The position numbers were made by a program, and so were the translations under genes. The notes under the pieces were generated by a model. The model did no database searches and was not told the DNA's origin. It saw only the letters and a list, made by a program, of their open reading frames with translations. From a virus (lineage: Duplodnaviria > Heunggongvirae > Uroviricota > Caudoviricetes), in IMG/VR virus record IMGVR_UViG_3300046491_000064, positions 40,060 to 104,059 of that record: a DNA stretch of 64,000 nt. One strand, 5' to 3'. This document shows positions 31,566 to 62,668 of the stretch, piece after piece; position 1 is the stretch's first letter, and every line of letters starts with the position of its first letter.

Positions 31566-32462
31566 GTGATGTTTAAGAAGTTGATTGGTATTGTAGTGTT
31601 GGGTATGACTCTGGCACTTAGCGGTTGTGGTGAACGCGTGGAAGTTCCACCGGGCTTTGTTGGTAAGATCATGACCAAAGATGGTTATCAGGAAGGTCTG
31701 ATTCCAACTTCGAAACTGCGTCTACCATTCTGTAATGCTTACTGTGATCGTCTTGTTGTTCTGGACACCACGGACAAGTCGTATGTTGAGCAAATGGCTA
31801 TCTTCATTCCGGGTGATAAGCTGATTGTAAATGTCGATCTGCGTGCAACTCTGTCGGTTGATCCAACTAAGGCAGAGGCAATGTTTAATAAGCTGCCACA
31901 AGTACCTGAGAGTGATCAGTTCAGTAAGATTACTGCTGAATCGATCTACAGTACATATGGTAAACAAGTATTGCAGGCTGAAGTTCGTTCTTACCTGACT
32001 CGTTACACAATCTCTGAGATTGCATCGAATGGTGAGAAGATTAACGCTGACATTCAGGTACTGCTTGCAAAGGTTATGGGTGAGCGTACACCGTTTACTG
32101 TTCGATATGCTGGCTTGACCAACATCAAGTATCCTGAGATTATCACTCAGGCTCAAGAGAACAGTGCAAAGCGTCGTGAAATGATTGCTCAGGAAGAGGC
32201 ACAACTTGAAGTAAGTAAAGTTCAACTTGATCGTGAGTTGCAAGAAGCTAAGATGCAGCGTGCAATTGACAAAGAGAAAGCTGAGACTGAAGCTGTAGCT
32301 CAAACTGTTCTGGCTAATGCTGTTGATCCACGTAGTCTGCGAATCAAAGAACTTGAGATTCAAAAGATTCTGGCTGAGAAGTGGGATGGTGCTCTGCCTC
32401 AAACAATCATGGGCGGTGACGGTAAAGTTCCTCTGATCATGGACATGCGTAAACCTCAGTAA
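31566..32462 (+). CDS. SPFH/band-7 (prohibitin/stomatin-like) lipoprotein
   Basis: signal peptide with lipobox LALSGC; band-7 core followed by Glu/Gln-rich coiled coil. Confidence 0.65.
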   Translation: MMFKKLIGIVVLGMTLALSGCGERVEVPPGFVGKIMTKDGYQEGLIPTSKLRLPFCNAYCDRLVVLDTTDKSYVEQMAIFIPGDKLIVNVDLRATLSVDPTKAEAMFNKLPQVPESDQFSKITAESIYSTYGKQVLQAEVRSYLTRYTISEIASNGEKINADIQVLLAKVMGERTPFTVRYAGLTNIKYPEIITQAQENSAKRREMIAQEEAQLEVSKVQLDRELQEAKMQRAIDKEKAETEAVAQTVLANAVDPRSLRIKELEIQKILAEKWDGALPQTIMGGDGKVPLIMDMRKPQ

Positions 32463-39944: not shown

Positions 39945-40117
39945 CCGCACTGGAACTAATTGAACATCTGAAGTTTAATATTGCAGATGGTATTCAAACA
40001 TGTCACAATAACCTCAATTCTTCGACAGCAAACAGTTCTGTTGCGATAATCCTCACAGCAATAGAGCGTGCTGTCAATGCAGTTGAAATCGAAATTTACA
40101 AAGGTAATGTGAAATGA
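39941..40117 (+). CDS. small hypothetical protein (58 aa)
   Basis: ATGA coupled both sides. Confidence 0.3.
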   Translation: MTALELIEHLKFNIADGIQTCHNNLNSSTANSSVAIILTAIERAVNAVEIEIYKGNVK

Positions 40118-46719: not shown

Positions 46720-46909
46720 TAAGGTTTACGGTTATGTGATCATTCATAAAGAGACAGGTGACCAGTGGGGTGGCGTTTATGCCAACAAAGCAGGTGCAGC
46801 CTCTGCTTACAACCACTATCACAACAATCATTACCAACGTGAAAAGCGTCACAAGTTTGCTGACCAAGATGCGTATCAGCGGCGTTCGCTGGTTCTAGCT
46901 GATGAGTGA
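46712..46909 (+). CDS. hypothetical protein (His/Tyr/Asn-rich)
   Basis: 65 aa. Confidence 0.35.
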   Translation: MSNKVYGYVIIHKETGDQWGGVYANKAGAASAYNHYHNNHYQREKRHKFADQDAYQRRSLVLADE

Positions 46910-47324
46910 AAGTCGAAGCCCGACATATCGTAGTTGGGATGGTATGATACAAAGGTGTACAAACCCTAACCATGAAGCGTATGAAAGGTACGCTTCTAAA
47001 GGGATTACAGTTTGTAAAGATTGGTTTGTTTATTCAAACTTTCGAAAAGACATGGGTGTGCGACCTGAAGGTTTGACCCTTGATCGTATTGATAATAACA
47101 AGGGTTACTATGCTGAGAACTGTAGATGGACTACCCGTCAGACACAGCAACTTAATCGTGGTAAGTTTAAGAACACAACATCAAAATACAAGAACGTATA
47201 TTGGAGTAAGAAGAGTTGCAAATGGATGGCTCGTTATCTAAAAATTGATGGTACAAGAGTTTATCTAGGTTTATTTGAAAATGAGGATGATGCAGGGAGG
47301 GTTGTTAATGAATACAGAGAATGA
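46902..47324 (+). CDS. HNH homing endonuclease with C-terminal AP2-like DNA-binding domain
   Basis: YRSWDGMIQRC..TLDRIDNNKGYYAENCRWTT HNH core; AP2-like YKNVYWSKKSCKWMARYLKIDGTRVYLGLFENEDDAGRVVNEY. Confidence 0.65.
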   Translation: MSESRSPTYRSWDGMIQRCTNPNHEAYERYASKGITVCKDWFVYSNFRKDMGVRPEGLTLDRIDNNKGYYAENCRWTTRQTQQLNRGKFKNTTSKYKNVYWSKKSCKWMARYLKIDGTRVYLGLFENEDDAGRVVNEYRE

Positions 47325-47889
47325 GTATCGTCCGTGGATAGAGTATAATCACATTTGGAAAACTGAATCAGCTTATCTTAGTTGGTTGAGAGGTGGAATT
47401 AGACGATCACTTTGGAGTAAGAACCCAATCAAGTTGGAGTTTGAAAAGGATGTAGCCGTACAGATTCCGAATTACAATCCAAAGAGCATGAAACGATTCC
47501 CTACCATCGCTGGCGGTCAGTGTGAAATCTGTAAGGGTTTGTTCAAGAAAACTGACATGGAAGTTGACCACAAGACCGGTGAGTTTGCATTGCGTTCGAT
47601 CAGTGACATTCAGACGTTTGTACAAGGGATTGTGTTGGTTCACAAGAAAGACCTTGCTCATCTGTGCAAACCCTGTCATGGTGTCAAAACTCATATGGAA
47701 CGGTACGAGTTCCCGACATTCGAGGAAGCTAAAGCTGACAAGAAAGCGATTGAGTGGGATAAGAAAAAAGCTAAGCAAGTGATTGACTTCCTTACGAAAT
47801 CTGGTATAATGCCCGCACGAAAGAAGGAAGATCGTCGAAACCAACTCTTTGAACATTTTAAAAAGGAGTATCAGAATGAAAGTAAATGA
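47308..47889 (+). CDS. HNH endonuclease (Zn-finger HNH, CxxC..DH..H..CxxCH)
   Basis: CEICKGLFKK..MEVDHKTGE..HLCKPCHGVKTH; GGAGGG RBS before ATG 47308. Confidence 0.6.
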   Translation: MNTENEYRPWIEYNHIWKTESAYLSWLRGGIRRSLWSKNPIKLEFEKDVAVQIPNYNPKSMKRFPTIAGGQCEICKGLFKKTDMEVDHKTGEFALRSISDIQTFVQGIVLVHKKDLAHLCKPCHGVKTHMERYEFPTFEEAKADKKAIEWDKKKAKQVIDFLTKSGIMPARKKEDRRNQLFEHFKKEYQNESK

Positions 47890-50131: not shown

Positions 50132-50151
50132 TAGAATTAAAGGAGAATACA

Positions 50152-50676
50152 TTGAGTTATCAGAAATACACGCCGGAAGTAAGACGATGGAATGAAGTGA
50201 TGTTAAATGCACCAAGCTTTGATCATAGTCGAGATGTACGTGATACGATGAACATTGCAAAGATCGGTCGTCAATCTAACTTTGTTATCGAAGAGGCGAA
50301 AGAGATTCGTGAAGGTTTCGAGACCACTAATGTTCAAGAGATGCTGGACGGTCACCTAGATACTCGTTTCGTTAACGATCAGATTGGTGTATACTTGGAA
50401 GCACTTGGTATTGACCTTGAGGCTGCTTGGAATGAGGTATGTGCTTCGAACAACTCCAAGTTTAGCACTGACCTAGACATGATGCTAAAGAGTGCTAAAA
50501 GTTTGACTGAAGAGCTTGGAGATGAGGTGTTAGTTCAACAGGCACCGTCTGCTGTTGGTGAGCCGACCACTTATATCCTGAAACGTACAAGTAACGGGAA
50601 GATCATGAAACCTGATTGCTTCCGTGAACCAAACCTGCGTCCATTTATTCCTAAACATTTGAGAGGTAAGCGTTAA
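50152..50676 (+). CDS. MazG-like nucleoside triphosphate pyrophosphohydrolase (putative; TTG start)
   Basis: AAAGGAG before TTG 50152; EMLDGHLDTRF..YLEALGIDLEAAW resembles MazG EEXXE/D helices. Confidence 0.45.
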   Translation: MSYQKYTPEVRRWNEVMLNAPSFDHSRDVRDTMNIAKIGRQSNFVIEEAKEIREGFETTNVQEMLDGHLDTRFVNDQIGVYLEALGIDLEAAWNEVCASNNSKFSTDLDMMLKSAKSLTEELGDEVLVQQAPSAVGEPTTYILKRTSNGKIMKPDCFREPNLRPFIPKHLRGKR

Positions 50677-51503
50677 TGACTGTTAATATTGGTGATCGTT
50701 ATAAAGTTGTTGGTGGCCTTGTAAGCTACACAGATGTATATGTTACTGACGAAATGCTTGACTCGATTTACACTGTCGTTGAGGACTCTAATGATCCTTG
50801 CTGGTTTGACTTCGAAGAAAAGACTGTTGAAATTGGTGCTGTTAAATATTGGCCCCGTGACTTTGAGAAAGTTGAAGCCTTGGATGAACATACTGTAGCT
50901 ACTCACTTTGTTACTACGGCTGTAGGTAAGATTGTTCCTAATCCTGACTTTCATAGTCTAAAGCCTAACTGGTCCATTCACATGGCTGATAGTGACAAAA
51001 GTCAGTTGTTTTACGCAGGTGATAATGGCATTACAGTTTCACCTATTGCTATGAACATTCCTCAAGAGCATGTTGATAGTGCCTCGGTAAAAAGCGCATT
51101 TGAAAGCATTCGTGGTGCTTTGGCTTCTGGTATTGCTCAGAGTAAAGCTGATTCAGAGTTGAGCACTCGGTTTGGTAATAGCTCGCTCGGTGTTTATCGT
51201 CCTAACTTGGAAGACCGTAAGGTTGGTAAGGTGCGAGTAGAACTGGTTGATCATGGTTTCCCTAATGCACTTTGGGAACTGGCTAAACTGATGACTTGGG
51301 CACAGGAAGCAAAAGGGTACAAAGACCACGACTGGAAGAATCTTCCAAATGCTAAAGCATCTTTGCGTGCAGCGGCCAGCCGTCATCGCCAGAAAGATAT
51401 CCTTGGTGAATTGATGGATGATGAAAGCGGTTTGTATCACAAGGTAAGTGAAGCGTTTGGTGTTCTGGCTGAGCTTGAACTAATGCTGACCGAATCGAAG
51501 TAA
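50676..51503 (+). CDS. hypothetical protein (nucleotide-metabolism neighbourhood)
   Basis: 275 aa. Confidence 0.45.
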   Translation: MTVNIGDRYKVVGGLVSYTDVYVTDEMLDSIYTVVEDSNDPCWFDFEEKTVEIGAVKYWPRDFEKVEALDEHTVATHFVTTAVGKIVPNPDFHSLKPNWSIHMADSDKSQLFYAGDNGITVSPIAMNIPQEHVDSASVKSAFESIRGALASGIAQSKADSELSTRFGNSSLGVYRPNLEDRKVGKVRVELVDHGFPNALWELAKLMTWAQEAKGYKDHDWKNLPNAKASLRAAASRHRQKDILGELMDDESGLYHKVSEAFGVLAELELMLTESK

Positions 51504-51523
51504 GATATTGACTTATGTGGGTG
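51495..51523 (+). promoter_or_regulatory. sigma70 promoter TTGACT-17-TATAAT
   Basis: -35 51495-51500, -10 51518-51523. Confidence 0.6.
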
Positions 51524-51572
51524 ATTCACGTATAATGGTCACCCTACAACTAGAAAGTAAAGGAGAAAGAGT

Positions 51573-52583
51573 TTGTCTGATCAAGTAAGTGCAGTTGTTA
51601 TTGCCCATTCCAAATCTGCTGTAACCGGTCATGAAATGGTGACATTCGAGTGGGAATTCCCTCGTATCATCTTGGCTGAAGTTAATACCCACAACGCACT
51701 AAGTAAGAATGCAAGCTCTTCTCGTGCAATTCCTGTAGCAACCATCAACACACAAGTTCGTTCTGCACCAGCAATGCCCGTTCGCTTCGGTAAAGCAAAC
51801 ACAGGTATGCAAGATGCTGGTGAACATAATGAAGCTGTATTCCTGAACTTCCCTGACAATGGTTATTGCGGATACTTCACACCTCAAGATGCTTGGGCTG
51901 TTGGTTGCGAAGTAGTTGCCAGTATCTCTGATGCATTCACTGAAGCTGGTTATGCAAAACAAGTAGCAAACCGTTGGACCGAAGTTGGTCAGCGTATGAA
52001 ACAAGTTGTATCGGCTACAGACCTTGCAAACTTCTTTTGGTTGCGTGATCACCATATGGCTGATCCTACCATTGATGCTCTGGCAAAAGCTGCTAAAGAG
52101 GCTCTGGCTGCGTCTACGCCTGTGATTCTAAATCCGGGTGAGTGGCATGTTCCGTATTACAATGATGGTTATTGGATCAAGAGTAATTTCCTGAGTGTTA
52201 ATCGTGATGTAGCAATTGACAAGTTTGGTTATACACTTCAGCAAGCTTTGGACATCAGTGCTTCTTGCACTGCCCAAGTTAGTTATCGTAAGCTGGATGA
52301 CACAATGGAAAAAGCTCGTTCTGTTGTTGCTCGACTGAATCTTCACGGTGAACAACCTGATGATCCTGTACATGCAAGTCCTTTGGAACACCAAGCAACA
52401 CCGATTGCAAGAAGTGAATGTAACGATCCAAGTGATGACACCGATGGTATTAACCTGATGGACCCTTGCACATGGGAACCGGGAATTACACACAGAATGC
52501 GTGATGGTACTTTGGCATCTGGTAACCTGAAAGGGTTTATTCAGCATCGTCAACTAGTTCCGAATCATGTGAAAGAGGGTTAA
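51573..52583 (+). CDS. ThyX-like (flavin-dependent thymidylate synthase fold) protein with THN in place of RHR
   Basis: TTG start with AAAGGAG RBS; PRIILAEVNTHNALSKNASSSRAIP aligns to ThyX SR..THQLVRHR..S.R but Arg-His-Arg is Thr-His-Asn. Confidence 0.55.
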   Translation: MSDQVSAVVIAHSKSAVTGHEMVTFEWEFPRIILAEVNTHNALSKNASSSRAIPVATINTQVRSAPAMPVRFGKANTGMQDAGEHNEAVFLNFPDNGYCGYFTPQDAWAVGCEVVASISDAFTEAGYAKQVANRWTEVGQRMKQVVSATDLANFFWLRDHHMADPTIDALAKAAKEALAASTPVILNPGEWHVPYYNDGYWIKSNFLSVNRDVAIDKFGYTLQQALDISASCTAQVSYRKLDDTMEKARSVVARLNLHGEQPDDPVHASPLEHQATPIARSECNDPSDDTDGINLMDPCTWEPGITHRMRDGTLASGNLKGFIQHRQLVPNHVKEG

Positions 52584-52587
52584 TAAA

Positions 52588-53049
52588 ATGAGTGAATTGA
52601 AGATTGAAAAGTTTGACCAGCCACATGAGTTCGATCAGTTTCTAGGTCAGATTGATATGGAGCATCACCCTCTGTGGGAAAAAGCATGGCAGGGACAAGA
52701 TCAGAAAGCGTTTGAAACCATTCTACATGATATGGGTGCAGACCTTCGTTATGGTTATGAATTCCGTGTGTGTCTATATCGGGCACGCACAAATAACAAA
52801 GTGGAATACGGTGTTCGTGTAAGCTTTGTTGAACGTACTGACAAATGGTGGGTAGACAATATGATGGCTACTTCTGACATTGTTCGTACAACTAAGAACA
52901 GTTTGCGTGCAACTGGTATGCGTGAGAGCCTGATGGAAGAAAGCCCAATGCATACAGCTATGGTTGCCGCTGCTGAGCGTTTCGTTGTTAATGCTGACAT
53001 CCGTGTTGATGAAGGCGATGTTGCTAATATTGTGGAAGGGGTTAAATGA
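52588..53049 (+). CDS. hypothetical protein
   Basis: 153 aa. Confidence 0.45.
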   Translation: MSELKIEKFDQPHEFDQFLGQIDMEHHPLWEKAWQGQDQKAFETILHDMGADLRYGYEFRVCLYRARTNNKVEYGVRVSFVERTDKWWVDNMMATSDIVRTTKNSLRATGMRESLMEESPMHTAMVAAAERFVVNADIRVDEGDVANIVEGVK

Positions 53050-53291
53050 TGATTAAAGTATTCGGTATGCAAAATTGCAGTGGGTGTGACACAGTTAAGA
53101 CACTACTTAAAACCAAAGGTGTTGAGTTTGTCGAACTAGATGTTATGAACCCTGACCATATGGCTGAAGCTCAAACTTATGGTGTTCGTGGTGTTCCAAC
53201 TGTTGTAATCAACAACGATGGTACTGAACATGTATTCACAGGAAGCACTAAGCCTGTTCTGGATTCGATTATTCTGCACGCCGGACTTTAA
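53046..53291 (+). CDS. nrdH: glutaredoxin-like protein NrdH
   Basis: 81 aa, CSGC redox motif, directly upstream of RNR genes. Confidence 0.7.
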   Translation: MMIKVFGMQNCSGCDTVKTLLKTKGVEFVELDVMNPDHMAEAQTYGVRGVPTVVINNDGTEHVFTGSTKPVLDSIILHAGL

Positions 53292-53293
53292 CT

Positions 53294-54298
53294 ATGGCAG
53301 TGCAAATCCAAACCTTCACGGATAGCTTCGTTGCTGACTATCCTGAAGCAATCGAGTTTATGAATAAGCAACAGGAAATCTATTGGCCCCACTTTGAGGT
53401 CAAGGTAGAGAAAGATAAACAAGATTTCATGGTTAACCTGAGTGAGCAAGAGAAGCATGGTGTTATTACTACACTTCAGCTGTTCACCAAGTATGAATGG
53501 ATCATCGGTAATGAGTTCTGGATCAACTTCGTAATGAGGAAGTTCCCACGACCTGCTGACATTCAACCAATGGCTGCGACGTTTGGTGCTGTTGAGATGG
53601 GTATCCATCAATTCTTCTACAAGAAGTTGAATGAAGTATTAGGTTTGGCTAACGATGAGTTCTATCGTGCTTATATCAATGACCCCGAGTTGAAAGCTCG
53701 TATTGACTTCCTGACTGAAACGTTGGATGAGGCTGATGACCTTCGGGCACTTGGTGGTTTTACATTCGGTGAAGGTGCAATTCTGTACACCAGTTTTGCT
53801 TATCTTAAACACTTTCAATCGAGTGGTAAGAACAAACTGGTTAACGTTGTGTCTGGTATCAACTTCAGCGCTCGTGATGAGCATCTGCATTCACTTGCTG
53901 CTGCTTGGTTGTTCCGTACACTGCTGGCAGAGAAGCGTGCCGCTGGTGAGATTACACCAGAAGAGGAAGTAGCACTGCAAAAAGATATCTTTGCTGCTGC
54001 TCAGAAGGTGTTGGAACATGAACAGGTTATTATCGCTAAAATCTTCGAGAAAGGAACGATTGATGGTATCACTGCTCACCAGTTAGAAGAGTTTGCAAAG
54101 CATCGTATTAATCTGTGCTTGAACAACTTGGGTTATGAGTCGTTGTTTGAAATCAAAAACACAGTTGTTGAAGAATGGTTTTACAAGGGTATCACTGGAT
54201 ATGCTTCGAATGACTTCTTTAACTCTAAAGGCAATCAGTATTCGCGTGACTGGAACTTGATGGGGTTCAGCCGTTTGAAACGTAAGGAGCAACAATGA
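53294..54298 (+). CDS. nrdB: ribonucleotide reductase class I small subunit
   Basis: diiron ligand motifs incl. EHLHS, ferritin-like fold length. Confidence 0.85.
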   Translation: MAVQIQTFTDSFVADYPEAIEFMNKQQEIYWPHFEVKVEKDKQDFMVNLSEQEKHGVITTLQLFTKYEWIIGNEFWINFVMRKFPRPADIQPMAATFGAVEMGIHQFFYKKLNEVLGLANDEFYRAYINDPELKARIDFLTETLDEADDLRALGGFTFGEGAILYTSFAYLKHFQSSGKNKLVNVVSGINFSARDEHLHSLAAAWLFRTLLAEKRAAGEITPEEEVALQKDIFAAAQKVLEHEQVIIAKIFEKGTIDGITAHQLEEFAKHRINLCLNNLGYESLFEIKNTVVEEWFYKGITGYASNDFFNSKGNQYSRDWNLMGFSRLKRKEQQ

Positions 54299-55989
54299 CA
54301 GCTGTAACATATGATGCCTTGAGCAAAGAACGTAAGAAACTACAGGAAGCGGGCTTAATGCCCGAACACTGGTCAACCGGTAGTTGGCAGTTGTTTAAAG
54401 AGAAGTATCTGTACAAAGCAGACAATCCTCGTGAACAGTATGAACGTATCGCAAAGACTCTGGCTGTACACACACCAGACCCGTCATTGTGGGCTGAGAA
54501 GTTCTTTGACGTGATGTGGAAGGGTTGGTTGTCACCTTCGACTCCTATTCTGTCTAACGTTGGTACGACTCGTGGTCTTCCTGTAAGCTGTGCTGGTGTT
54601 TACTATCCTGACAGCATTGACGGAATCTTTCAAGCTAAGCACGAAGTAGCGATTCTGACTAAACATGGTTTCGGTACTGCTGGCTATCTTGGTGACGTTC
54701 GTCCTCGTGGTGCAGCGATTAGTGCTGGTGGTAAGTCGGCTGGTATCCTGCCTATCATTGAAGGCATGGAAAACGACATGACCTATGTTGCTCAGGGTAC
54801 TACTCGACGTGGTGCATGGGCCGGTTATGTTCCAGTTAATCACGGTGACTTCCATGAAGTTGTTGATTACCTGCTGGCTCATGATGACGGTGTTAACGTT
54901 GGTTGGAACTGGTATGATGTTGATACAGACGCTATCGTCAAACATTACTGCGAAGAGATGGACCTTCGGTGGTGTAAGGTCAATAAGACCCGGATGGTGA
55001 CAGGTAAGGGTTACATGTACTTCCCTGACAAAGTGAACCGCGCTCGACCTCAGATGTATGTTGATAAAGGCATGTTCGTTAAGGCAGCACAACTGTGTGA
55101 TGAAATCAGTTTGTTCAATGACATCGATCATACTTACACTTGTGTACTGGCTTCGATGAATGGTCGTAAGTATCGTGAATGGAAATACACTGATGCTGTG
55201 TTTGTTTCGACTGTGTTCCTTGACTGTGTTGCTCAGGAATTCATCGAGAAGGCTAAGAACATTCGTGGTCTTGAGAAGGCTGTTCGCTTCACCAAGAAGT
55301 CTCGTGCATTGGGTCTTGGTCTGTGTGGTTTGCACTCTCTGTACATGAGCGAGTTCATTGCATACGATTCGCTACAAGCGACGTTCTTGAACGTTGAAAT
55401 CTTTAAGCATCTGAATGCTGAGAGTCTGCGAGCAAGTCAATGGGTTGCAAGTGTATATGGTGAACCTGAATGGTGTAAAGGTTATGGCGTAGCTAATACA
55501 CACCGCTTGGCAGTCGCTCCAACGAAGTCTACGGCACTTATCATGGGTGGGGTTACCGAAGGTATCAACACTGAAGACGGACTCGTTAAAACGCAACGTA
55601 CAGCGGCTGGTGAAGTTGATCGCGTGAACCCTGAGTTCCTTGATTACCTGAAACAAGAAGGTCTGTACAGTAAAGCTCGTATTCGCGAAGTACGGGAAGC
55701 GATGGGAAGTTGTCAGCGTGTTAGTTGGTTGAGTGATGAGGCTAAGCTTGTATTTAGAACCGGGTTTGAGATTGACCCGTATGCTCAGATTCGTCAAGCT
55801 TCGCAACGTGGTCCAGAGTTGTGTCAGTGGCAGTCGTTCAACCTTTACCTTAGTTCCGACTTGGGTGAGGAATACATCAGTGATGTGATGTGGACTATTG
55901 TTGAAGATGAAAATATGCATGGTGTGTATTACACATATGGTCAAGCTGGTGTTCAGGCTTCCAATGGTGAATGTACAGCATGTCAGTGA
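54295..55989 (+). CDS. nrdA: ribonucleotide reductase class I large subunit (no ATP-cone)
   Basis: 564 aa, ATGA coupling to nrdB, C-terminal ECTAC redox pair. Confidence 0.8.
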   Translation: MTAVTYDALSKERKKLQEAGLMPEHWSTGSWQLFKEKYLYKADNPREQYERIAKTLAVHTPDPSLWAEKFFDVMWKGWLSPSTPILSNVGTTRGLPVSCAGVYYPDSIDGIFQAKHEVAILTKHGFGTAGYLGDVRPRGAAISAGGKSAGILPIIEGMENDMTYVAQGTTRRGAWAGYVPVNHGDFHEVVDYLLAHDDGVNVGWNWYDVDTDAIVKHYCEEMDLRWCKVNKTRMVTGKGYMYFPDKVNRARPQMYVDKGMFVKAAQLCDEISLFNDIDHTYTCVLASMNGRKYREWKYTDAVFVSTVFLDCVAQEFIEKAKNIRGLEKAVRFTKKSRALGLGLCGLHSLYMSEFIAYDSLQATFLNVEIFKHLNAESLRASQWVASVYGEPEWCKGYGVANTHRLAVAPTKSTALIMGGVTEGINTEDGLVKTQRTAAGEVDRVNPEFLDYLKQEGLYSKARIREVREAMGSCQRVSWLSDEAKLVFRTGFEIDPYAQIRQASQRGPELCQWQSFNLYLSSDLGEEYISDVMWTIVEDENMHGVYYTYGQAGVQASNGECTACQ

Positions 55990-56002
55990 GTTGAAGAAAA
56001 TG

Positions 56003-56027
56003 CCCGCCTCGTGCGGGTTTTCTTTTG
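56003..56027 (+). terminator. rho-independent terminator (same stem as 44501)
   Basis: cccgc ctcgt gcggg ttttcttttg. Confidence 0.65.
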
Positions 56028-56042: not shown

Positions 56043-56070
56043 TTGACACCCTGTCAGGATCGTGTAGAAT
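56043..56070 (+). promoter_or_regulatory. sigma70 promoter TTGACA-16-TAGAAT
   Basis: -35 56043-56048, -10 56065-56070. Confidence 0.55.
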
Positions 56071-61963: not shown

Positions 61964-62668
61964 ATGACGGATTGGCAGAACTATTATGAGAGTAACCCAA
62001 GAAAAACTTTAAAACATAAAAAGAAATTAGTGAACGGGTTTGGTGTTAATGATTTAGATTATGTGACTGAGATTAGACATGACGGAAAGTCTGTATACCG
62101 CTGTGGTTTCTATCATAAGTGGGAAGGGATGATTCGTCGTTGTTATAGTAAGAATCAACCAATAAAGCACCCGTCATACTCGAATGTTGTTATCAGCGAA
62201 GATTTCAGACACGCTTCTAGCTTTAAAGAGTGGATGTTAAGCCAAGTTTACAAAGAGAAAGGTAAAAATTTATCTCTTGATAAAGACCTTATAAACCCTT
62301 CAGCACAAATATATAGTCCAGAAAACTGTGTGTTTGTGCCTGATTTTGTTAATTACTCTGTGTATACCGGTGCTTTTGTGAAGACTGATGATTACCCTAT
62401 TGGTGTGCAACCATTTACATTGAAGGATGGTATAGATGTCTATCATGCAAGGTCCACATGCAAGAAACATCTTGGTGTATTTTCATCCCCACAACTAGCA
62501 CACAGAGCTTGGCAACAATCTAAAATCGACAGGTTGCACGAAGTAATAAGGCAGTATGAGGTACTAGATTGTTTCAGAGATGATGTCTGTGACTCGCTAT
62601 ACCGAAGGATTCACCTAATCAATGAACAAATTAAAAACGGAGAGCGAACTTACAACCTTGACTTTTAA
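61964..62668 (+). CDS. HNH-family homing endonuclease-like protein
   Basis: YHKWEGMIRRCYS..SLDKDLINPSAQIYSPENCVFV parallels the HNH core of the 46902 gene; AGGAG RBS. Confidence 0.5.
   Translation: MTDWQNYYESNPRKTLKHKKKLVNGFGVNDLDYVTEIRHDGKSVYRCGFYHKWEGMIRRCYSKNQPIKHPSYSNVVISEDFRHASSFKEWMLSQVYKEKGKNLSLDKDLINPSAQIYSPENCVFVPDFVNYSVYTGAFVKTDDYPIGVQPFTLKDGIDVYHARSTCKKHLGVFSSPQLAHRAWQQSKIDRLHEVIRQYEVLDCFRDDVCDSLYRRIHLINEQIKNGERTYNLDF

Follow-up and report, generated by a model that had tools for sequence, protein, structure and literature searches.

Introduction

When phages take over nucleotide metabolism, the synthesis of thymidylate is one of the central steps. Among the enzymes responsible, the flavin-dependent type, ThyX, serves as an antibiotic target, and its mechanism depends on flavin adenine dinucleotide (FAD) bound by an Arg-His-Arg (RHR) signature motif. 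The residues of this motif, together with Ser71 and Arg190 of ThyX from Mycobacterium tuberculosis (Arg165 in the Helicobacter pylori numbering), bind the phosphates and the ribityl moiety of FAD, and the first Arg of the motif additionally forms a hydrogen bond with the isoalloxazine ring (PMC6514825). The ligands for deoxyuridine monophosphate (dUMP) are given as R78, R80, S88, and R90 (PMC3498832). Here we report on a ThyX-like gene of a tailed phage (Caudoviricetes) that is located on the plus strand at positions 51573-52583 of a 64,000-nucleotide stretch of the IMG/VR record IMGVR_UViG_3300046491_000064 (positions 40,060 to 104,059 of that record); this entire stretch is referred to as the window in the following.

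Canonical ThyX proteins (PF02511, TIGR02170), such as TM0449 from Thermotoga maritima, ThyX from M. tuberculosis, and A674R from PBCV-1, share with the window protein the His residue of the signature motif, the Ser-x-Arg element, the equivalents of R174 and N169, the HxSPxEH element, and the genomic association with the synthesis of deoxynucleoside triphosphates (dNTPs). Unlike them, the window protein carries THN in place of RHR (THR in most members of its family) and has lost the equivalents of R165, E86, and Y91. Its alpha1-alpha2-HxSPxEH segment has been moved behind the C-terminus, it scores below the cut-offs of the curated hidden Markov models (HMMs), and it is about 100 amino acids (aa) longer, and it has an insertion of approximately 40 aa (about residues 65-103) and a C-terminal extension of approximately 60 aa that contains an invariant Arg.

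The closest described relatives are the long-form phage proteins of PHROG 85, a group whose profile (labeled "thymidylate synthase") matches the window protein at 8e-82. They occur in rV5-like, phi92-like, and PAK_P1-like phages, in KIL1, ICP1 (ORF193), phiCbK (gp116), the N4-like phage G7C (gp30, whose record notes the similarity to gp30 of N4), in the Pseudomonas siphovirus vB_PpS_SYP (gp69; hereafter SYP), and in many more, and the named members are annotated as (putative or FAD-dependent) thymidylate synthases. These full-length homologues are 33-61% identical to the window protein over 93-100% of its length, and agree with it in their rearranged architecture, their invariant residues, and their neighborhood of ribonucleotide reductase (RNR) genes. 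The window protein is thus a member of this group, and it deviates from the usual long form by an Asn instead of an Arg at the third motif residue, a deviation common to its own THN/THK clade and paralleled by non-Arg residues in a few scattered lineages. The family as such is already known, as it is annotated in more than 1,000 phage genomes; it fails the canonical tests for ThyX with respect to the RHR motif, the HMM cut-offs, the topology, and the FAD-phosphate ligands.

Two further ThyX-like proteins provide a frame for comparison. PolB, a UMP/dUMP C5-methylase from polyoxin biosynthesis (PDB 4P5A/4P5B), shares the fold with the window protein, with no further specific sequence relationship, and stems from a bacterial secondary-metabolite gene cluster rather than from a phage nucleotide operon. 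The gp130 protein of Bacillus phage SP-15, a second Thy1-family protein of this virus, has been hypothesized to be a hydroxymethyluridylate synthase (PMC5977210). It resembles the window protein in being a divergent ThyX-fold protein from a phage for which a new function has been proposed. However, SP-15 possesses two Thy1 genes and a DNA known to be hypermodified, whereas a single such gene, and no evidence of DNA modification, was found in the 64 kb of the window.

The ThyX-Like Protein Is Predicted to Be Rearranged

We consider it probable that the product of the gene at 51573-52583 is the flavin-dependent thymidylate synthase of the phage itself, of a phage-specific and structurally rearranged ThyX type, a name that rests on homology. 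The reading frame starts with TTG, ends with TAA, and specifies a ThyX-derived protein of 336 aa in which the peptide PRIILAEVNTHNALSKNASSSRAIP is found. A ribosome-binding site (AAAGGAG, 51559-51565, plus strand) lies 7 nt upstream of the start codon, and the TTG start is credible because homologues that are 72% identical align over the full length (100%), beginning at residue 1. An identical protein (P0001) is recorded on a 105.7-kb metagenome contig of the Joint Genome Institute (JGI). Among cultured phages, the closest relative of the gene is that for gp69 of SYP (OQ183418.1; 107 kb), with 59% identity by tblastn and 61% in a protein alignment. A megablast search of the phage collection with the operon gave no match; at the DNA level, close cultured relatives are thus lacking.

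The relationship to ThyX is faint by sequence. Neither a phmmer search with the protein nor a profile built from its close relatives found a ThyX match among the sequences of the Protein Data Bank (PDB), and these sequence searches, including those with profiles, detected no solved structure of the phage long-form family either; a more diverse family profile (A3) yielded weak ThyX matches with E-values of 0.007-0.07. At the level of the fold, the relationship becomes clear. An AlphaFold2 (AF2) model calculated from an alignment of 80 sequences, which replaced a single-sequence AlphaFold model with a predicted local distance difference test score (pLDDT) of 32, reached a pLDDT of 93.2 and a predicted template modeling score (pTM) of 0.91, and the top 50 matches of this model in a Foldseek search against the PDB were all ThyX or PolB, with a template modeling (TM) score of about 0.5 when superposed in sequential order. 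The modeled protein accordingly displays the alpha/beta fold of ThyX. The single link to SP-15 is a weak Foldseek match (E 0.025) to a "thymidylate synthetase" entry from that phage, which may or may not be gp130.

With 336 aa, the protein exceeds the 191-270 aa of the solved ThyX chains, and its parts follow each other in an unusual order. Residues 1-183 (51573-52121) form a core segment whose order matches that of the ThyX core; it begins with the strand preceding the motif helix and extends through the final helix of canonical ThyX (positions 45-190 of the Pfam Thy1 profile). These residues lack the canonical helices alpha1-alpha2. Residues 184-277 (52122-52403) contain what corresponds to the canonical N-terminal segment: two helices, the sequence ISASCTAQVSY resembling AARVSY, and then HASPLEH resembling GH-x-(S/T)-P-F-E-H. 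The canonical order (beta1-2, alpha1-2, HxSPxEH, motif helix) is therefore not kept in the window protein. As judged from profile alignments, the fold of the entire family is non-sequential in that the canonical alpha1-alpha2-HxSPxEH segment (about residues 222-273) is placed behind the canonical C-terminus, a feature that is new here.

Several comparisons carry this proposal. An HMMER alignment of the family profile to T. maritima ThyX placed residues 15-59 of the latter at profile positions 212-261 and residues 53-90 at 13-50, and residues 159-199 fell on 131-171, so that the matches do not run in sequential order. When the C-terminal half was compared by hhalign with a profile of the canonical ThyX N-terminus, built from sequence fragments of about 100 aa, residues 224-273 aligned with positions 18-60 (score 35.4, E 1.6e-5, probability 79%), whereas a column-reversed control reached a score of 13.5 with an E-value of 0.17. 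Constructs in which residues 184-275 were moved ahead of residue 23 point in the same direction. Their Pfam Thy1 scores rose by 12-17 bits in four family members, namely from 20.5 to 32.6 bits for the window protein, from 38.1 to 55.4 for rV5, from 53.9 to 69.9 for G7C, and from 35.0 to 48.5 for phiCbK, and coverage of the profile then began at about position 13-15 instead of about 45-64. There was no gain when the moved segment was reversed (16.1, 39.3, 51.9, and 31.3 bits, respectively). The secondary structure of the AF2 model, with strands at residues 6-15 and 21-30, the motif helix at 31-38, and helices at 222-234, 245-254, and 269-273, fits the rearranged order, and we infer that the relocated helices occupy their canonical position.

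The chain ends with a family-specific extension (residues 278-336; 52404-52580) that has no significant counterpart in canonical ThyX and contains the near-invariant residues N318 and Q324 and the invariant R326. We considered whether Q324-H325-R326 (52542-52550) might be the relic of a second RHR helix originating from a tandem duplication. The hhalign comparison with canonical ThyX was not significant (E 0.19-0.35), and in a self-comparison the score of 8.9 fell below the 12.5 of the reversed control; we have consequently dropped this claim of homology. The original prediction had named a better alignment restoring the RHR motif elsewhere as a finding that would refute it; this Q324-H325-R326 register is the one that hhalign picks, at the insignificant level just given.

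Equivalents of Substrate-Binding Residues Are Largely Kept and Several Flavin-Binding Residues Replaced

Residue equivalences were read from the alignment of the family HMM with ThyX of T. maritima, whose numbering as used here is the chain numbering minus 12 and agrees with the mutant entries H53, S88, Y91, and R174. By this alignment, T39-H40-N41 (51687-51695) is the counterpart of the RHR motif R78-H79-R80, and S49-S50-R51 (51717-51725) that of the dUMP-binding Ser-x-Arg element S88-G89-R90. The signature R-H-R-X7-S thus reads T39-H40-N41-X7-S49-S50-R51; both Arg residues are missing, and the His, the Ser, and the downstream Arg are present. Around the motif, Q75 corresponds to E36, S83 to S44, N85 to N46, E86 to A47, and Y91 to A52. 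Further along the chain, N163 is replaced by S147 and R165 by T149, while N169 and R174 are represented by N153 and R158. In the relocated segment, H267-A-S269-P-L-E272-H273 (52371-52391) takes the place of H53-E-T55-P-F-E58-H59.

Within the dUMP-binding set (S88, R90, R147, and R174), S49, R51, and R158 align exactly with S88, R90, and R174. Judged by these equivalences, the nucleotide-binding half of the active site (S49/R51, R158, N153, and the HxSPxEH element H267-H273) and the motif His (H40) appear to be retained. Of the ligands for the FAD phosphates (the RHR motif, the Ser of HxS, and R165), H40 and S269 alone are kept, and Thr or Asn residues (T39, N41, and T149) stand in place of the Arg residues. 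These findings bear out much of what the original prediction had derived from the sequence, that is, a protein with a ThyX fold, longer than typical members, in which RHR has become THN with the loss of both Arg residues and the retention of Ser-x-Arg.

The Motif Variant Is Widespread in the Phage Family

The long-form family is large. It comprises more than 4,578 matches in a database clustered at 90% identity, 5,870 clusters at 50% identity with E <= 1e-3 (3,991 with E <= 1e-30), and, by tblastn, 1,020 records in a collection of cultured phages, 996 of which cover at least 80% of the query. Residue frequencies were derived from 143 diverse family representatives. Position 39 is a Thr in 141 of them and position 40 a His in all; position 41 is an Arg in 123 (86%) and otherwise Lys (11), Asn (5), Gly (2), Cys (1), or Ser (1). 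S49 is present in 142, R51 in 143, and S269 in 140 representatives, and the window protein possesses all ten residues listed as invariant (H40, R51, A52, K129, R134, N153, R158, S237, H267, and R326). It hence differs from the T-H-R usual for its family at the third motif position, by an Asn. One representative of 324 aa (P0340) has a full R-H-R (SELLRHRMFSFSAGSSRAVP) within the rearranged architecture, representing either the ancestral state or a reversion.

How the third position varies is informative. Among the 120 clusters nearest to the window protein, 99 carry THN, 19 THK, and one each THR and THG; the closest cultured relative, SYP, carries THK. In the 118 N4-like clusters with a readable motif, THR is found in 117 and THS in one. 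Non-Arg residues at position 41 occur in lineages with 35-71% identity to the window protein. This scattered loss suggests relaxed constraint at the third motif residue more than a single functional switch. T-H-x is therefore the signature of the family, and THN a clade variant of a family-wide oddity rather than the mark of a special gene. Likewise, the frequencies indicate that the third Arg is moderately constrained and was lost in several separate lineages, including the THN/THK clade of the window.

In some family members the gene is interrupted by inteins. One of these (in P0336) contains an HNH domain, starts with Cys, and ends with VHN; it is flanked directly by MTHRMF and SRNAASSR and so lies within the degenerate ThyX motif, and an HNH-domain intein in P0385 occupies the same junction. 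Inteins are likewise seen in P0253, P0285, and about 10 further representatives of 520-680 aa, and some members carry LAGLIDADG domains at a different site. Insertion exactly into the THR motif is what one would expect of a functionally critical site. In N4-like roseophages, the gene has been treated as thyX paired with dcd, with a dN/dS of 0.18 (PMC11934525).

In the rV5-like Escherichia phage vB_EcoM-ECP26, the homologue is annotated as two adjacent open reading frames (ORFs), A0A4Y5TVX3 (245 aa) and A0A4Y5TVY4 (97 aa; BFVD). The first comprises the core and most of the relocated segment, and the second the C-terminal tail. Such split annotations in some rV5-like phages go back to a frameshift or a sequencing error, unless the gene is genuinely split.

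Weighing the Function of the ThyX-Like Protein

If the protein is a thymidylate synthase as we propose, it would catalyze the reaction of dUMP, methylenetetrahydrofolate (CH2-H4folate), and NAD(P)H to deoxythymidine monophosphate (dTMP). MazG-type enzymes and/or a deaminase would supply the dUMP, RNR would supply deoxynucleotides, and the ThyX-like enzyme would methylate dUMP. As the three Arg residues contacting the FAD phosphates are absent (T39, N41, and T149), the flavin would be held in another way than in canonical ThyX, plausibly via R326, K129, and R31, basic residues whose invariance is confined to the long-form family; that these three act as replacement ligands for the flavin phosphates is a conjecture. 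THN in the place of the THR of the family would then represent a tolerated variant at the level of the clade.

Several observations weigh against a thymidylate synthase. The Pfam Thy1 search, which the original prediction had proposed as a check, did return a match, yet its 20.5 bits stay below the gathering cut-off of 24.8 and it covers profile positions 45-190 only. The score with TIGR02170 (thyX) from NCBIfam is 23.2 bits at a cut-off of 87.9, a cut-off also missed by the homologue from the N4-like phage G7C with 56.4 bits. Moreover, the canonical FAD or dUMP ligands R78, R80, and R165 are absent, E86 and Y91 have become A47 and A52, and R134, albeit invariant in the family, lands one residue away from R147/R172 when aligned by HMM. 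Lastly, no family member was found in the searched literature for which the formation of dTMP or the binding of FAD had been demonstrated; mentions as thyX were based on homology.

Taken one step further, these features would describe the whole long-form family (at least 5,870 clusters and more than 1,000 cultured phages) as an unorthodox ThyX with a non-sequential fold that has lost the Arg residues of the FAD clamp and gained Arg/Lys residues of its own, and that may rely on another flavin or hold it differently or, in THN/THK and comparable clades, yield something other than dTMP. We regard this extended proposal as tentative and on balance unlikely.

Neofunctionalization, the direction in which the original prediction had pointed, is an unlikely explanation as well. 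According to it, a ThyX-fold enzyme would bind a pyrimidine nucleoside monophosphate and a flavin, and its product would not be dTMP but, for instance, 5-hydroxymethyl-dUMP formed via hydration of the exocyclic methylene intermediate; or it would, like PolB, act on another nucleotide substrate. Removal of the canonical dNTP would in this case fall to the MazG-type pyrophosphatases. The loss of the R78, R80, and R165 equivalents, the changes at E86 and Y91, the subthreshold scores with the ThyX HMMs, the two NTP pyrophosphatase genes immediately upstream, and a family with no biochemical record in the searched literature all speak for such a scenario. On the other hand, the Thr-for-Arg exchange is family-wide and extends over more than 1,000 cultured phages, among them N4-like phages, ICP1, rV5, and phiCbK, none of which is known to replace thymine. 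The Asn/Lys variant arose repeatedly, the gene is probably co-transcribed with those for RNR, and no base-hypermodification genes were recognized among the ORFs scanned near the ThyX-like gene.

It is also the sole candidate for a thymidylate synthase that was found. Searches by tblastn with E. coli ThyA and a fragment of T. maritima ThyX detected no other thymidylate synthase in the 64-kb window, nor did the same queries in positions 1-100,000 of the 107-kb SYP genome; given this lack of a ThyA or a second ThyX, the ThyX-like gene is not a spare paralog. The claim that THN marks a neofunctionalized paralog is consequently not sustained: the Thr belongs to the family as a whole (141 of 143 representatives), the loss of the third Arg is scattered, the remaining active-site equivalents (H40, S49, R51, R134, N153, R158, and H267) are invariant, and the second synthase that the word paralog implies was not encountered in the sequences searched. 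The suggestion of a base-hypermodification setting found no backing among the scanned ORFs either. Nor was there support for a Z-genome (PurZ/MazZ/DatZ) module, which would combine PurZ with a MazZ-type pyrophosphatase, or for a hypermodification module. The gene at 50676-51503 carries a PF18909 domain; among the large ORFs that were scanned from 31 to 63 kb, no adenylosuccinate-synthetase (PurZ-like) domain and no modification enzymes were recognized.

Lower again in probability is a genuine thymidylate synthase with another cofactor arrangement, for example with flavin mononucleotide (FMN) or a flavin that is loosely bound or externally reduced. The ligands for the AMP/pyrophosphate part of FAD are gone except for H40 and S269, with T39, N41, and T149 replacing the Arg residues (cf. 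PMC6514825). This would suit such an arrangement, but the family-invariant basic residues R326, K129, and R31 could equally well restore the binding of FAD. A catalytically dead ThyX relic that binds dUMP or flavin in a regulatory or structural role, for which the degenerate signature motif and the score below the Pfam cut-off could be cited, is very improbable in view of how strongly those active-site residues that are left have been conserved throughout 5,870 clusters, the inteins targeting the motif, the low dN/dS reported for the N4-like homologues (PMC11934525), and an operon context consistent with nucleotide metabolism.

Under the favored interpretation of the gene as a rearranged thymidylate synthase, the locus itself is largely ordinary: it would contain the expected nucleotide-metabolism gene of an SYP-like siphovirus, with a variant that is family-wide and not specific to the window. 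The common phage form, however, dispenses with the first Arg of RHR (here with the third as well) and with R165, and its N-terminal segment now stands at the C-terminus. Provided that it is active, this form would reveal the extent to which a ThyX active site tolerates rebuilding, and nature would have supplied an experiment on the binding of flavin and the rearrangement of a fold. Should its product not be dTMP, the annotation of thousands of phage genomes would have to be revised, as would surveys of "auxiliary metabolic genes."

Gene Neighborhood

The ThyX-like gene is embedded in a nucleotide-metabolism module, whose parts between 50152 and 56018 lie on the plus strand. Upstream, a MazG-like NTP pyrophosphohydrolase (50152-50676; PHROG 671, 4e-20; PHROG 2144, 5.9e-9) is encoded with a likely TTG start preceded by AAAGGAG at 50139-50145. 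It is followed by the gene for a 275-aa protein (50676-51503; PHROG 19117 and 801) whose C-terminal approximately 95 aa represent the N-terminal domain of dATP/dGTP diphosphohydrolase (PF18909; Pfam 4.8e-20, above the cut-off) and whose N-terminal approximately 160 aa are without a domain match. Some PHROG relatives of this protein bear the odd label "endolysin; inhibits RNA polymerase."

Downstream, a 153-aa protein of unassigned function (52588-53049) matches PHROG 3506 (4e-15), a group labeled "thymidylate synthase." It has no Pfam or NCBIfam match and no ThyX-like features, so that this label may be an annotation by association. The protein is 49% identical to its neighbor in SYP, and its conserved position beside the ThyX-like gene is confined to the SYP-like clade. 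As a universal partner subunit it can be dismissed, given that neither the rV5 nor the G7C homologue is flanked by a gene for a similar protein. Then follow, with overlapping or abutting reading frames (53046-55989), the genes for an NrdH-like glutaredoxin (53046-53291; NCBIfam), whose start overlaps the stop of the preceding gene, for the RNR beta subunit NrdB (53294-54298; NCBIfam), and for a short, "NrdE-prime"-type RNR alpha subunit NrdA of 564 aa (54295-55989), with TIGR02510 as the best match (505.7 bits, cut-off 602). Further upstream in the module lie genes for a primase-helicase, a DNA polymerase, an exonuclease, HNH endonucleases, and a polymerase-exonuclease subunit.

The 69 nt that separate the ThyX-like gene from the preceding gene contain a match to the sigma-70-like promoter consensus (TTGACT-17-TATAAT, 11/12; 51508-51536), and a terminator-like GC hairpin with a T-run (56002-56018) follows 13 nt after the nrdA stop codon; both are consensus matches only, and promoter-like sites as a class are not enriched in the region (13 found vs 17 expected in shuffled sequences). 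With these sites directly upstream of the ThyX-like gene and behind nrdA, the gene probably heads a thyX-like-orf153-nrdH-nrdB-nrdA unit that would be independent of the transcript of the MazG genes. Similar 11/12 promoter-like sites are found at 47783-47810 and 56043-56070.

The original prediction had recognized a neighborhood devoted to nucleotide metabolism, and with MazG-type genes upstream and nrdH/B/A downstream this holds true. Its MazG-like and NrdHBA assignments stand as well, while the gene at 50676-51503, counted there as coding for an unknown protein, possesses the PF18909 domain. Its description of the operon genes as starting with TTG behind a perfect AAAGGAG applies to those at 50152 and 51573; the other two of the four start with ATG.

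The local gene order is the same in SYP, in which a DNA-polymerase gene is followed by a pyrophosphohydrolase gene, the thymidylate-synthase-like gene, a small ORF, an NrdH-sized ORF, and the genes for RNR beta and RNR alpha. The homologue adjoins RNR genes in SYP, rV5, ICP1, and phiCbK, and in phiCbK also a dNMP kinase gene. In the N4-like phage G7C, it is located four genes downstream of that for dCTP deaminase. SYP additionally encodes a protein resembling cytidine/dCMP deaminases.

Three genes resembling those for HNH homing endonucleases are scattered over the replication and nucleotide module of the window (46902-47324, 47275-47889, and 61964-62668), the first two of which overlap by 50 nt. 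An SPFH/Band-7 protein (31566-32462; Pfam 8.7e-11) is encoded among the early and replication genes, and SYP has the same gene, annotated as "band 7 protein." SYP furthermore encodes the NAD-salvage enzymes nicotinamide phosphoribosyltransferase and ribose-phosphate pyrophosphokinase, an RNA ligase with polynucleotide kinase/phosphatase, and the product of a gene annotated as "DNA sulfur modification protein."

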